From contig CAZUUH010000001.1 of NCBI GenBank assembly GCA_964623415.1, forward strand, positions 1,305 to 65,304: a stretch of DNA of 64,000 bases, written 5' to 3'. The stretch's first letter is position 1, and each line of letters begins with the position of its first letter. The notes beneath the pieces are model-generated. The model searched no databases. It was not told the origin of the DNA and saw nothing but the letters and a program-made list of their open reading frames with translations. This stretch comes from an uncultured Candidatus Saccharibacteria bacterium (lineage in GTDB: Bacteria > Patescibacteriota > Minisyncoccia > Phycocordibacterales > UBA9973). Below are positions 6,954 to 17,281 of the stretch, piece after piece. The position numbers were made by a program, and so were the translations under genes.

Positions 6954-7559
6954 ATGAAAGAAGAAAATAAAAATAAAACAATAATTAATGATTCAGAAAA
7001 TCAAATACAAGATGAAATTGTAAATGATTTAGAGTTTATTGAAACCAATGAAGAAGGGGAGTCTCTATTACCTAAAGATACAATCAAAAAATTAAAAGAA
7101 GAGATCAAGAATTTAAAAAAAGAAAAAGAAGAGTATCTTACTGGTTGGCAAAGAGCTAAAGCTGACTATATTAATTTACAAAAAGAATACGGAGATTCTC
7201 ATGCAAGAAGTTCTGTTTTAGTAAAAGAAAGATTTTTAAAAAGTTTACTTGCAGCAATAGATAGTTTTGATATAGCTTTTAAAAATAAAGAATCTTGGGA
7301 AAAAGTAGATAAGAACTGGCGAGTAGGTGTAGAATATATATATCAACAATTAATGACAGGTCTTTCTGATGAAGGAATAGATAAGATTGATGACATAAAT
7401 GCTAGTTTTGACCCTAAAATACATGAATCTGTTGATGTAGTAGAAACTAAAACAAAAGAACAAGATCATAAGATTGCAGATATAATACAAGTGGGGTACA
7501 AGATTGGTTCAAGAGTAATACGACCAGCTAGAATAAATATTTTTGAGTATAAAGATTAA
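6954..7559 (+). CDS. grpE: Nucleotide exchange factor GrpE
   Basis: Coiled-coil N-terminus, LTGWQRAKADYINLQKEY and a C-terminal IIQVGYKIGSRVIRPARI beta-domain are typical of GrpE. The ATG at 6954 follows the terminator; the track ORF start at 6708 overlaps rpsI and is spurious. Confidence 0.8.
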   Translation: MKEENKNKTIINDSENQIQDEIVNDLEFIETNEEGESLLPKDTIKKLKEEIKNLKKEKEEYLTGWQRAKADYINLQKEYGDSHARSSVLVKERFLKSLLAAIDSFDIAFKNKESWEKVDKNWRVGVEYIYQQLMTGLSDEGIDKIDDINASFDPKIHESVDVVETKTKEQDHKIADIIQVGYKIGSRVIRPARINIFEYKD

Positions 7560-8077
7560 ATAAATAAAGTTTTAATAAATTCTCTTCTTGTTTCTTCGTC
7601 TATTTTATCTGTAACCATTATCATTATTTCGGTTTTTAGACCAAGATCTTTTTTTATATTTGTAAATAAATGTTCGAATGGATAGATTGAAATCCAGACA
7701 GAATTTTTTATACAAACAAACTCGGCCTTCTTTAAAAGATAACGTAGCGCTTCACGTTCATTTTTTCTTTCTTCTGGAAGATCAAGCAATATTATTCTGA
7801 AATATCCATCCCATTCTGTTGAAACGAGACCATTTTCATTTTCTAAGTATAATTGATTTAGTTTATGCTTTCCTTCTTTGGTTAAGCGTATATATTCACA
7901 GTTATCTGATGAAATAGACTCAAGTAATCCATCTGCTTTCATATTTTTTATAGAACGAGAAATCGCATATTTATCCTTTGGGTTTTTGGTATTATTGTGT
8001 AATGTATCAAAAGGCACAGCTTTTTTCCCGGCTAATTTCTTTAAAATACCCCTAGAAATATTGGATTTTTTTACCAT
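7556..8077 (-). CDS. Putative transcriptional regulator: N-terminal winged HTH plus a C-terminal Cas2-like-fold (PaaX-type middle) domain
   Basis: The C-terminal RIILLDLPEERKNEREALRYLLKKAEFVCIKNSVWIS fits the Cas2/PaaX-middle-domain pattern (beta-strand with D, an Arg/Lys helix, G.r.Q.SV). It is a paralog of the gene at 15414..15914. It lies divergent from dnaK. Confidence 0.45.
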   Translation of the reverse strand: MVKKSNISRGILKKLAGKKAVPFDTLHNNTKNPKDKYAISRSIKNMKADGLLESISSDNCEYIRLTKEGKHKLNQLYLENENGLVSTEWDGYFRIILLDLPEERKNEREALRYLLKKAEFVCIKNSVWISIYPFEHLFTNIKKDLGLKTEIMIMVTDKIDEETRREFIKTLFI

Positions 8078-8110: not shown

Positions 8111-8165
8111 ACAAGTATTTTGCGGTCACTAAATACTTGTCAAAAATAAAAGATTGGTATATACT
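8111..8165. promoter_or_regulatory. Palindromic operator (acaagtattt-N10-aaatacttgt) overlapping a sigma70-like promoter for dnaK (TTGTCA-17-TATACT)
   Basis: Perfect 10-bp arms at 8111-8120 and 8131-8140. The -35 is at 8137-8142, the 17-nt spacer follows, and the -10 is at 8160-8165. This sits in the divergent intergenic region between the regulator gene and dnaK. Confidence 0.45.
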
Positions 8166-15214: not shown

Positions 15215-15301
15215 AGTTTTATCTCGATTATTAATAACTACTTAAGTGTATAATATTTAGCTTAAAAATCAAGGAGAATTTGGAATATTTCAAATAAACA
15301 C

Positions 15302-15350
15302 ACCACCCACAAAAGAGAATTACTCTTTACGGGTGGTTTTCTTTTTTATT
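15302..15350 (+). terminator. Strong hairpin (accaccc-ac-aaaagag/ctcttt-ac-gggtggt) followed by a T-rich run, preceded by a TATAAT at 15249-15254
   Basis: Read directly from the sequence. It lies in the lysC / PaaX-like intergenic region with no plus-strand gene upstream, so it may be a leader attenuator or a short sRNA terminator. Confidence 0.45.
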
Positions 15351-15376: not shown

Positions 15377-15412
15377 TGACACACTTTCTGCAGGTGCAGA
15401 GTTTGTGTCACT
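15377..15412. repeat. Left copy of a perfect 36-bp inverted repeat (tgacacactttctgcaggtgcagagtttgtgtcact), itself an imperfect palindrome
   Basis: Exact reverse complement of 15915-15950. It ends 1 nt before the ATG of the enclosed gene. Confidence 0.9.
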
Positions 15413-15413
15413 A

Positions 15414-15914
15414 ATGCATTTAAAGTATAATATTAATATGTCTATAGTAAGTGAAATATTAGAAGAACTTTGGAATACAGAATACAATTATAGAGGAGTA
15501 AGAGTAAATATTTTTGGTATACCTAAATTTAAAAAGTATTCACAAAGGAGTGTTCGTACGACGGTTGATCGTTTAAAGAAAAAAGGGATTATAGAAAAAG
15601 AGATTTCTGGGATAATTCTTTCAAAATATGGCAAAGAATATGTAAAAAGAAAATTCGATTCATTGAAACAATTCGAGAAACCAGAAAATATATCAAAAGA
15701 AAGAAAACTTCTTGTGATGTTTGACGTTCCTAGTGAAAGGAAAGGTGAGCGTGAGTGGCTACGTTGGCATCTAAAAAAATTTAATTATATTATGATTCAG
15801 CAAAGTGTTTGGGTTGGACCAGCTCCACTTCCAAAAGAATTCAGTAATTACCTTAAGGAAATTAAACTCGATAAATGTATTAAAACTTTTAAACTTGAAA
15901 AACCGTATAAATAA
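15414..15914 (+). CDS. Putative transcriptional regulator, wHTH + Cas2-like-fold (PaaX-type) domain
   Basis: KLLVMFDVPSERKGEREWLRWHLKKFNYIMIQQSVWVG aligns to the Cas2/PaaX middle-domain pattern, and the N-terminal half looks like a wHTH (VRTTVDRLKKKGIIEK). It is a paralog of 7556..8077. The track start at 15333 is GTG inside the repeat/terminator region, so the ATG at 15414 is preferred. Confidence 0.45.
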   Translation: MHLKYNINMSIVSEILEELWNTEYNYRGVRVNIFGIPKFKKYSQRSVRTTVDRLKKKGIIEKEISGIILSKYGKEYVKRKFDSLKQFEKPENISKERKLLVMFDVPSERKGEREWLRWHLKKFNYIMIQQSVWVGPAPLPKEFSNYLKEIKLDKCIKTFKLEKPYK

Positions 15915-15950
15915 AGTGACACAAACTCTGCACCTGCAGAAAGTGTGTCA
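15915..15950. repeat. Right copy of the perfect 36-bp inverted repeat, starting immediately after the stop codon and followed by T5
   Basis: agtgacacaaactctgcacctgcagaaagtgtgtca followed by ttttt. It can fold as a hairpin and so probably also terminates the gene. Confidence 0.9.
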
Positions 15951-16002
15951 TTTTTGTCAAATAAAATTATTCTTTAAAGGGATTACTAATCTGCAAGGAT
16001 TT

Positions 16003-16030
16003 TTGTATATTTTTACCATTTTGATATAAT
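16003..16030 (+). promoter_or_regulatory. Sigma70-like promoter TTGTAT-16-TATAAT placed only 6 nt before the ATG, implying a leaderless mRNA
   Basis: Hexamers read directly from the sequence. The ATG at 16037 sits at the expected TSS position. Confidence 0.4.
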
Positions 16031-16036
16031 TACAAC

Positions 16037-17281
16037 ATGTCAAAAATATTAGTTATTGGTTGCGGAAATGTGGGAAGCGTAGGCTTGCACAAAATGGCTC
16101 AATTTCCGAAAGTTTTCTCCGAAATACATGTAGTAGGGAGAACTCTTTCGAAGTGTGAGGCTGTTGCCAAATCCGTCTTTAAAAGATTTAAAGTTAAATT
16201 ACATATTCATATTAGTGACGTAGGCAAGGGTGATAATTTCCTAAAATTACTTAAAGAAGTAAATCCGGAGTTGGTAGTAAACTGGGGAAGTCCTTATGAC
16301 AATCTAGTTGTTATGGATGCATGTTTGGAATATGGTGTTAGATATATTGATACAGCTTGTTATGAACATCCAGATAAATATGGTTTTTCATATAAATTAC
16401 AATTAGCTAAAAATGAAGCATATAAAAAGAAAAATCTTCTTGCTATTTTAGGTTGCGGTTTTGATCCAGGAGTTTCAAATATTTTTTCTGCTTATGCTCG
16501 TGATTATCTTTTTGATAAAATAGATACCATAGATATTTTGGATTGTAATGGTGGTTCAAAAGATGAAAGTATTAAATTTGCTCCAAACTTTGATCCAGAG
16601 ATAAATCTTCGCGAGCTTATTCTTCCTATCAAGTATTGGAAAGATGGTAAATGGCAAGAAAAAGGAAAACTTATTGATGAAGATGCTCCTTTCTTTGAAT
16701 TTAATTTTCCTGAGGCAGGGAAGTTCACCCCATACCTTATGTATCATGAAGAGCTTGAGACTATTCCAAGTCATATTCCTGGTTTAAAGAAAATTCGTTT
16801 TTGGATGACATTCTCAAAGAATTATCTTACATATCTTCGAGTCCTTTACAATGTTGGGTTAACTCGTATCGATGAGATTGATTACAATGGTAATAAAGTA
16901 ATCCCTGTAAAATTTTTGAAAGCTATCTTGCCTAAGGGAGAAGATTTTAATAGTGGATACGTGGGCAAGACAAATATTGGGAATATCATAACTGGAAAGA
17001 AGAATGGAAAGAAGAAAATGGTTTATATTTACAATGTTTGTGATCATAAAGAAGCATTTAAAGAAACTGGTGGTAATGCTATTGGCTATACAACAGCTAT
17101 TCCGACTGTTACTTGTGCAAAGCTTGTACTTGAAGGGAAATGGGGTGGAATTGGTGTTAAGAATACAGAGGATGAGTCACTTGATTCAAAAGTTTTCTTG
17201 GATGAAATGGCAAAAGTTGGGCTTACATGGCAAGTAAAGAATTTGAAAGATATCCCAGCCGCACTAAAGAAAAACTACTAA
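16037..17281 (+). CDS. Carboxy(nor)spermidine dehydrogenase/synthase (saccharopine dehydrogenase family)
   Basis: N-terminal ILVIGCGNVGSVGLHKMAQ Rossmann fold, about 414 aa, directly followed by the carboxynorspermidine decarboxylase gene. Confidence 0.75.
   Translation: MSKILVIGCGNVGSVGLHKMAQFPKVFSEIHVVGRTLSKCEAVAKSVFKRFKVKLHIHISDVGKGDNFLKLLKEVNPELVVNWGSPYDNLVVMDACLEYGVRYIDTACYEHPDKYGFSYKLQLAKNEAYKKKNLLAILGCGFDPGVSNIFSAYARDYLFDKIDTIDILDCNGGSKDESIKFAPNFDPEINLRELILPIKYWKDGKWQEKGKLIDEDAPFFEFNFPEAGKFTPYLMYHEELETIPSHIPGLKKIRFWMTFSKNYLTYLRVLYNVGLTRIDEIDYNGNKVIPVKFLKAILPKGEDFNSGYVGKTNIGNIITGKKNGKKKMVYIYNVCDHKEAFKETGGNAIGYTTAIPTVTCAKLVLEGKWGGIGVKNTEDESLDSKVFLDEMAKVGLTWQVKNLKDIPAALKKNY

Follow-up and report, generated by a model that had tools for sequence, protein, structure and literature searches.

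The closest known architecture to the one described here is that of the REP/RAYT systems, in which a short, single-copy gene is flanked by its own palindromic repeat to form a so-called REPtron, and in which gene variants are matched to repeat variants (PMC3337134). REP copies are scattered mostly past gene ends, some of them with A/T runs like those of terminators, and long perfect palindromes also occur among them (PMC3337134). The subject of this analysis is a 64,000-nucleotide stretch (the window in the following; positions 1,305 to 65,304 of contig CAZUUH010000001.1, assembly GCA_964623415.1) from a Paceibacteria/Nomurabacteria-type bacterium of the candidate phyla radiation (CPR), deposited as an uncultured Candidatus Saccharibacteria bacterium, in which a small gene for a protein with a winged helix and a Cas2-like fold is bracketed by two inverted copies of a 36-bp palindromic repeat. 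In the best-supported reading, the palindrome is predicted to be the cognate DNA site of the protein; with moderate confidence, the locus is interpreted as a mini-repressor of the PaaX type, flanked on both sides by its own operator of long-spaced inverted hexamers; this operator doubles as a low-copy, dispersed palindromic element.

The likeness to REP/RAYT lies in the constant association of gene and repeat; the gene is flanked by its cognate palindrome at all of the approximately 66 related loci and in three distant homologues. In contrast to the RAYT proteins, which are HUH/Tyr transposases of the IS200/IS605 type, the protein encoded here combines a winged helix with a Cas2 fold; in contrast to the REPs, which are extragenic and number tens to hundreds per genome, the palindrome is low in copy number, and 33 of its 77 copies at a distance from the gene fall within coding sequences (CDS). 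Here, moreover, the unit of gene plus repeats itself changes position. No description of this gene-palindrome association was found in the literature, the coverage of which was incomplete, and the partnership of protein and palindrome does not seem to have been described previously.

In the window, the upstream copy (TGACACACTTTCTGCAGGTGCAGAGTTTGTGTCACT) and the downstream copy are exact reverse complements (Table 1); they are 502 bp apart, and their identity extends to 42 nt at 95%. Either copy is also an imperfect palindrome with a predicted hairpin of -17 to -20 kcal/mol; the 34-bp core of the upstream copy (15377-15410) can be written as TGACAC-A-CTT-TCTGC-AGGT-GCAGA-GTT-T-GTGTCA. The downstream copy starts on the very next base after the stop codon (TAA, 15912-15914) and is followed by five T residues (T5), with which its hairpin looks like a candidate intrinsic terminator. 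No third copy of the 36-mer was found in the window at up to three mismatches, and shuffled sequence gave no matches; a scan against Rfam at gathering thresholds returned two tRNAs only, and a palindrome scan of viral contigs gave no match. The perfect inverted pair, the hairpin potential of each copy and the abutment on the stop codon and T5 had been recorded in a preliminary description of this DNA, and are confirmed here; both copies recur in independent assemblies, as five independent Logan contigs carry the upstream copy, and one carries the downstream copy. The Logan contigs come from six public sequencing runs (SRR8925805, SRR8925774, SRR16642449, SRR16642457, SRR16642447, SRR27197516) of the same strain or species as the window, with a LysC or carboxynorspermidine dehydrogenase (CANSDH) protein identical to that of the window. 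All seven of these contigs (L147-L153) end at or just before the repeat, and on the lysC side five out of six enter the 36-mer, as is expected when k=31 assembly graphs meet an exact 36-bp inverted repeat. Exact look-ups of the protein gave no match, which probably reflects breakage of public k=31 contigs at the repeat rather than rarity of the gene.

Table 1. Positions of the palindrome copies, the bracketed gene and its predicted signals in the window.
Feature	Position	Strand	Remarks
Upstream palindrome copy	15377..15412	.	Chimera; left arm CTT-type, right arm AAC/GTT-type
Putative -35-like hexamer, TTGTGT	15403..15408	+	Within right arm of upstream palindrome, 17 bp before -10
Putative -10 hexamer, TATAAT	15426..15431	+	6 nt before ATG 15438; leaderless or near-leaderless
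CDS, 158 aa	15438..15914	+	N-terminal winged helix and C-terminal Cas2-like (PaaX_M) domain; D96 invariant; without PaaX C-terminal domain
Downstream palindrome copy	15915..15950	.	34-bp core 15917-15950; AAC-type left arm, CTT/AAG-type right arm
T5 tract	15951..15955	+	With downstream hairpin resembles intrinsic terminator (-20.2 kcal/mol, z = -6.3)

The bracketed gene encodes a truncated PaaX-type regulator and not a CRISPR Cas2; the PGAP label "CRISPR-associated endonuclease Cas2" is misleading. The protein matched the central Cas2-like domain of PaaX (PF20803, PaaX_M; E = 2.6e-12, 47 bits against a cut-off of 24), barely passed the cut-off of the NCBIfam cas2 model (TIGR01573; 24.9 against 24.5 bits), and was matched by the PADLOC Cas2 models at 1e-6; the N-terminal half gave a weak winged-helix match (PF07848, E = 0.078). 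A sequence search of the PDB returned nothing useful, and the structural matches came from a fold search with an AlphaFold (AF2) model (pLDDT 81.5); both domains were matched by Mycobacterium tuberculosis Rv0674 (3kfw), Escherichia coli PaaX (8a39) and a Jannaschia PaaX-like protein (3l09), whereas Cas2 chains matched over the C-terminal half and winged helix-turn-helix (wHTH) regulators over the N-terminal half. The combination of wHTH and Cas2-like fold given in the preliminary description is thus confirmed by domain model and fold alike. The protein shares with PaaX the N-terminal winged helix, the central PF20803 domain and the overall fold, but the PaaX_C ligand domain is missing, and no paa genes occur among the neighbour families. 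With CRISPR Cas2, which has a conserved Asp at the end of strand 1, it shares the fold and an invariant aspartate, D96, that falls on the conserved beginning of the Cas2 models. The difference is one of context, since there is no CRISPR array in the window and no adjacent cas1, the neighbours being housekeeping genes.

Among 1.84 billion representatives searched, 17 clusters matched the protein at 1e-30 and 233 at 1e-10, most of the matches listed being 155-180 residues long; the top 120 clusters show 72-87% protein identity. Conservation is uneven along the sequence; the Cas2-like half is nearly invariant and far more conserved than the winged helix, and the putative recognition-helix region varies by clade. 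An in-frame ATG at 15414 had led the preliminary description to place the left repeat copy one nucleotide before the start codon, but nearly all of the 120 closest homologues (156-160 residues) align from the ATG at 15438; the latter is the true start codon, and the left copy consequently ends 25 nt before it.

Bracketing by palindromes is a property of the whole family. The first three orthologous loci compared (L001, L003, L004) have different neighbours (L20/IF3, rpoB and a purine cluster, respectively) and carry a palindrome of approximately 34 bp on both sides of the gene. The pair was found at all 36 reference-genome loci (87-40% identity) and at approximately 33 metagenome loci, and both palindromes are also present in three distant homologues (39, 36, and 34% identity), so that the total of approximately 66 loci spans 87-34% identity. 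In every homologue examined, one palindrome lies approximately 45 nt before the start codon and another just after the stop. The fallback position of the preliminary description, that the left copy could be a fortuitous mirror image of a terminator, does not survive this comparison, as the upstream palindrome is present at all orthologous loci. The element measures 34-46 bp and is a near-perfect palindrome, with perfect complementarity of usually 17-23 bp, and up to 28 bp, per arm; the consensus of the window clade is [4-7 variable nt] ACA NNN TCTGC NNNN GCAGA NNN TGT [complement], and the cores of more distant clades include GTTCGCCATGGCGAAC, CTGACGGCCGTCAG, and TTACGATCGTAA. In the locus with the 34%-identical homologue (L156:1459-2041), gene and palindrome pair are found between fusA (EF-G) and tuf (EF-Tu), normally a very conserved gene pair.

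The palindrome varies together with the protein and, within a genome, varies in concert. Sequence change in the palindrome keeps pace with that in the protein as far as homologues of 34% identity, the outer hexamers being the genome-specific part; copies on one contig mostly share these hexamers, including a copy inside the argS gene of L107, although exceptions exist, and the clade-by-clade variation of the recognition-helix region goes along with that of the hexamers. Two metagenome-assembled genomes (MAGs) contain two bracketed genes each, L013 and L014 in JAENWX01 and L037 and L039 in JBDRJU01, every one with its own palindrome variant; the outer arms are GGCAAC and TGGTAC in the first pair, and the cores differ in the second. 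These MAGs recall a rule of the one-RAYT-one-REPIN type, with the caveat that binning contamination is possible.

Symmetry itself is under constraint, as indicated by covariation among 50 distinct gene-flanking 34-mers from loci that were picked by gene rather than by motif. Paired bases occupy 90.5% of the cells of this alignment, and double changes are seen at 11 of the 15 pairs; the 137 double-change cells compare with 39.5 +/- 7.5 after shuffling and with at most 29 when the pairing is slid. Mismatches of G.U type on the sense strand are no more frequent than those of A.C type (14 vs. 17 downstream, 12 vs. 10 upstream), so that the symmetry does not have the look of an RNA-only constraint; a purely RNA-level hairpin is down-weighted accordingly. 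This result bears on the explanation that the palindrome is a selfish or structural hairpin element unrelated to the protein, a mini-MITE (miniature inverted-repeat transposable element) or a terminator module, copies of which would insulate the gene as bidirectional terminators and travel with it. The good hairpin and T5 of the downstream copy in the window would fit such an element, as would the A-run and T-run flanks of copies elsewhere and their placement, detailed below, 5-50 nt past stop codons and between convergent or tandem rather than divergent genes. Nevertheless, the explanation appears unlikely; besides the missing G.U bias, the upstream copy is kept where nothing needs terminating (at the divergent lysC junction of the window and at 10 other divergent loci), its distance from the promoter is conserved, the palindrome keeps pace with the diverging protein, and the ordinary terminators of the window (15302-15350) have stems unrelated to it.

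The position of the upstream palindrome relative to the gene start is more constrained than that of the downstream copy. An exact TATAAT precedes the start codon at 42 of 54 distinct loci and lies 6-8 nt from the ATG at 40 of 52; a TTGTnn in the right arm of the upstream palindrome, 16-17 nt before the TATAAT, recurs at many orthologous loci, and in the window TTGTGT presumably serves as the -35 of the gene. The centre of the upstream palindrome falls at -43.5 to -48.5 from the ATG in 41 out of 48 loci; the spacing between stop codon and downstream palindrome is free, at 2 to 84 nt. Given this leaderless promoter geometry, the upstream copy would lie outside the gene's own transcript and overlap the predicted -35 and the spacer. 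A TATAAT 6 nt before the ATG, without a Shine-Dalgarno sequence, is also seen at the gene for CANSDH (16025-16039), and leaderless starts may be common in this genome.

Two mechanisms offered in the preliminary description lose most of their ground with this promoter geometry. A long-range duplex between the 5' and 3' ends of the mRNA, enclosing the open reading frame (ORF) as an RNase III processing site, could draw on 36 nt of perfect complementarity between the copies; the -10 at 6-8 nt before the ATG would however leave the left copy upstream of the transcription start, the complementarity between copies is in many loci no better than the self-complementarity of each, and solo copies occur elsewhere, which makes the duplex extremely improbable. 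Hardly more credible is an on/off switch of the regulator by recombinase-driven inversion of the segment, although a perfect 36-bp inverted repeat around 502 bp suggests one, and the orientation of the inner segment is unreadable from k=31 contigs, since all of them break at the repeat. The promoter for this switch had been seen in a TATAAT at about 15249, outside the repeats; that TATAAT is not the promoter of this gene, and with both of the gene's own predicted promoter elements at or within the repeats, inversion would not uncouple them. Furthermore, how the copies are oriented to each other differs from locus to locus, with full symmetry in many pairs, the gene orientation is identical in three relatives with shared gene order (L007, L020, L122), and no recombinase was found among the immediate neighbours in the 66 loci clustered. 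The TATAAT at 15249 belongs to an extended -10 (15247-15254, TGTATAAT) between the lysC start and the bracketed gene, with a strong hairpin and T-run on its 3' side (15302-15350; -17 to -19.7 kcal/mol on either strand) that has no Rfam match and no counterpart in the approximately 108-bp lysC-CANSDH spacer of L114; the region 15247-15350 may give rise to a small transcript, belong to a lysC leader or serve as an insulator.

A paralogue of the protein is encoded between grpE and dnaK in the window (7556-8077, minus strand; 173 residues, wHTH and Cas2-like PaaX_M), and upstream of it lies a conserved palindrome, ACAAGTATTT-N10-AAATACTTGT (8112-8141). The right arm of this palindrome coincides with the TTGTCA -35 of the dnaK promoter in five genomes (the window, L007, L020, L122, L027), which points to the same design in the wider family. 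Paralogue and palindrome are candidates for a repressor of the heat-shock response and its operator, in a lineage with no evident HrcA at this locus.

The unit of gene and palindromes has changed its place in the genome. The window and its relatives L007, L020 and L122 share the gene order grpE, paralogue, dnaK, followed by arginine decarboxylase, asd and lysC; in the three relatives the unit lies between grpE and the paralogue, and in the window between lysC and the CANSDH gene. The grpE and paralogue stop codons overlap in the window, a clean empty site without remnant of the cassette; conversely, the divergent lysC-CANSDH junction of L114 (approximately 108 bp) is without it, and L105 has a different gene there. 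Conservation between loci is limited to the segment from palindrome to palindrome, with unrelated DNA outside. The inclusion of the gene in a polyamine biosynthesis cluster, mentioned in the preliminary description, is incidental in view of the 41 different neighbour pairs among the 53 loci that have a neighbour on both sides; a thymidylate-kinase-like gene is often retained upstream in one clade.

The mobile cassette proposed earlier is thereby upheld in a modified version. Presence at different sites and clean empty sites speak for it; its ends are however not the terminal inverted repeats of a transposon or MITE. Both ends are palindromes in their own right, with no conserved orientation relative to each other; the few junctions compared showed no target-site duplication, and the palindrome also occurs solo elsewhere. 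A nearer likeness is to pdif modules and integron cassettes, in which a single gene lies between two short, partly palindromic sites in different contexts, and the sequence of the window copies would match integration of a circle at the centre of such a site. In contrast to those systems, no Xer or integrase recognition features were identified here, there is no known recombinase, the cassette has its own promoter, and no circle was observed.

The match to circle integration comes from the variable triplet of the palindrome arms. Most loci carry perfect palindromes of two types at this triplet, for example AAC/GTT and CTT/AAG or TTT/AAA, and the closest metagenome relative of the window (L122) has two perfect palindromes, AAC-type before the gene and CTT-type after it. 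The upstream copy of the window joins a CTT-type left arm to an AAC-type right arm and the downstream copy is the converse, an arrangement unique among 45 loci. Exactly these two mirror-image chimeras would arise if a circle of the gene with one perfect AAC-type palindrome recombined once, within the common core, with a solo palindrome of the perfect CTT type, and we infer such a one-crossover origin. Simple inversion between the copies was rejected as their origin, since it predicts identical chimeras in direct orientation and not mirror images.

Palindromes of this family are not confined to the flanks of the gene. In the approximately 480 kb of gene-centred loci, some six extra copies were seen; they are perfect palindromes that have A-runs and T-runs at their sides and separate convergent genes (L012, L018), a copy after a neighbouring gene (L004), and copies inside coding genes (L016, L026). 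A metagenome scan with ACAAACTCTGCNNNNGCAGAGTTTGT yielded 106 loci, in which approximately 37 sites adjoin the gene and 77 do not. The further copies that the preliminary description suggested looking for thus exist in related genomes, past stop codons and inside coding sequences; the window itself has only the pair, and a figure of roughly 5-10 copies per genome is an extrapolation from the gene-centred and scanned loci. Distant intergenic copies lie between convergent (8) or tandem (24) genes and only once between divergent ones, nearly all of them 5-50 nt past a stop codon, and many copies are preceded by A-runs and followed by T-runs. A promoter-operator regulon was considered for the dispersed copies and rejected, as they sit past stop codons or in coding sequences.

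The 33 distant copies inside long ORFs have a precedent of another kind. Rickettsia palindromic elements (RPEs), approximately 100-150 bp in length, are palindromic repeats that occur in frame in coding genes, where they add a peptide segment, and also between genes. The likeness lies in the in-frame insertion; here, the palindrome is read in one frame in 32 of 32 real genes as T-N-S-A-(M/G/P/R/I)-A-E-F-V (TNSAMAEFV). The differences are that the palindromes here are perfect, measure 34-46 bp and reside in a Patescibacteria host, and that they are tied to a specific protein gene; RPEs are not known to have an associated gene. The genes that carry the segment encode MiaA, ArgS, phosphoglycerate kinase (PGK), FolD, an RluD-like protein, an AlkD-like protein and a reverse transcriptase. 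Alignment to homologues without the segment (MiaA, ArgS, PGK, AlkD-like protein) reveals an added or replaced loop, carried by some species and missing from others of similar divergence; in ArgS (5 of approximately 28 orthologues), PGK and the AlkD-like protein, presence and absence are found among close relatives. Four species share the position of the insertion in ArgS and have different palindromes there, each individually perfect.

Further observations concern the same genes. The reverse-transcriptase gene (RVT_1, 1.3e-25) of four species (L048, L079, L091, L126) carries the in-frame palindrome at the same position, just before the GLPLGNLTSQ motif. In MiaA, other lineage-specific, GC-rich in-frame inserts with short GC-rich inverted repeats (SPRLRRAKK, PLSGAGGG; L068, L056, L088, L076, L117) may represent further families of hairpin elements in coding regions. 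Elsewhere in the MiaA of L026 (9829-9862), a 26/34 palindrome of the pattern ACAAACTCTGC....GCAGAAATTGT encodes ITNSAIAEIV without any length change relative to other MiaA proteins, and looks to have originated by substitution or conversion rather than by insertion. The empty site of the AlkD-like gene resembles one palindrome arm when L113 is compared with L049 (10 of 14 matches), a similarity too weak to be used.

A low-copy family of sites, in coding sequences and between genes, conserved across species and with one member overlapping the promoter of the protein's own gene, also calls to mind sites that organise the chromosome or act as roadblocks, as in the parS/ParB, Ter/Tus-RTP or NBS/Noc systems, with one site beside the gene for autoregulation; TerB adjoins the tus promoter, and TerI overlaps the rtp promoter. 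This explanation is very improbable, given that the coding copies add or replace residues and do not recruit existing codons, that copies are present or absent between close relatives, and that such sites have no need of perfect hairpin symmetry.

The interpretation as a PaaX-type repressor with its own operator draws on a specific analogy. The binding site of E. coli PaaX is TGATTC-N27-GAATCA, and this protein represses the promoter of its own gene by getting in the way of RNA polymerase sterically (PMC9493321); the palindrome described here presents similarly far-apart inverted hexamers, TGACAC-N22-GTGTCA, and is different in that its entire 34 bp are self-complementary, that a second copy follows the stop codon, and that further copies are dispersed. 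A dimer of the protein would bind the palindrome via these outer hexamers; at the upstream copy, the bound dimer would cover the -35 and so repress the promoter, whilst the downstream copy would serve as the hairpin of a terminator and, possibly, as another place to bind. The unit would relocate by recombination at palindromes, when a circle of the gene and one palindrome joins a solo palindrome; the protein itself may have a role in this mobilisation.

As a caveat, several observations weigh against this interpretation. Binding and autorepression are deduced from position, covariation and analogy. A dimer on two half-sites leaves the self-complementary 22-bp spacer and the arms of up to 28 bp unexplained, and the operator model does not account for the copies at gene ends and in coding loops; a classical regulon does not explain the dispersed copies either, with one divergent against 32 convergent or tandem positions. 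The upstream and downstream copies of L009, L017, L087 and L129 differ in their outer hexamers. In a distant clade (L036-L039; 40-45% identity), the protein has no recognition helix and wing, and the flanking palindromes are kept; the winged helix may thus not be what recognises the palindromes. Gene conversion in inverted register also yields mirror images, and no solo palindrome was found at either empty site, which makes the route by circle integration a tentative one. In two members of the distant clade, a third copy of its palindrome (AAGTTCGCCATGGCGAACTT) was found inside the gene at the position of the lost recognition helix and wing (L037:10062-10087; L036:5594-5619).

The points that the operator model leaves unexplained keep a REP/RAYT-like role of the conserved Cas2-fold half under consideration. 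The protein would then be a nuclease or recombination factor that cuts, copies or homogenises palindromes as DNA hairpins or cruciforms, and a family of low-copy mobile elements would have its master copy in the palindrome-bracketed gene. The architecture corresponds to that of a REPtron, a single-copy gene of approximately 500 bp between its own palindromes with a specific association of gene and repeat type (PMC3337134). The much stronger conservation of the Cas2-like half with its invariant D96, the persistence of palindromes in the clade without a winged helix, the insertions in ArgS, PGK and the AlkD-like gene that come and go among close relatives, and the concerted evolution of copies within a genome would all be in keeping with such a role, and the perfect arms of 15-28 bp suggest elements made or corrected as hairpins. 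The protein, however, shows no HUH/Tyr motif in its conserved columns and no known recombinase fold, Pfam and NCBIfam giving only PaaX_M and cas2; the literature searched gave no catalytic activity for the Cas2-fold domain of a PaaX-type protein; the copy number is low; and no excision or insertion junctions were observed. On balance, this role is regarded as rather unlikely. The same degree of doubt attaches to its most far-reaching form, in which the Cas2-fold protein is the dedicated partner, for nuclease, recombination or maintenance functions, of undescribed mobile elements in the CPR, perfect palindromes of 34-46 bp that bracket their own gene, move as a cassette with a circular intermediate and enter essential genes in frame; these would be RAYT/REP-like and would have evolved independently of HUH transposases.

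Regulators are few in CPR bacteria (Patescibacteria), and mobile elements are thought to be few as well; here, a very conserved small protein is tied to a hairpin-forming repeat, and this palindromic repeat also reshapes the essential proteins MiaA, ArgS and PGK. On the practical side, exact repeats of this kind fragment short-read (k=31) assemblies at fixed points. If the protein only binds the palindrome, as in the favoured interpretation, the locus would provide unculturable organisms with a ready-made pair of operator and regulator, and with a model of a leaderless promoter that has its -35 in the operator. Should the protein handle palindromes as well, the locus would represent a new partnership of repeat and gene and a new activity of the Cas2 fold, with a bearing on the route by which Cas2 came to palindromic repeats; were it indeed a dedicated partner of the palindromes, it would be a non-CRISPR Cas2 fold acting on palindromic repeats of the size of CRISPR repeats.

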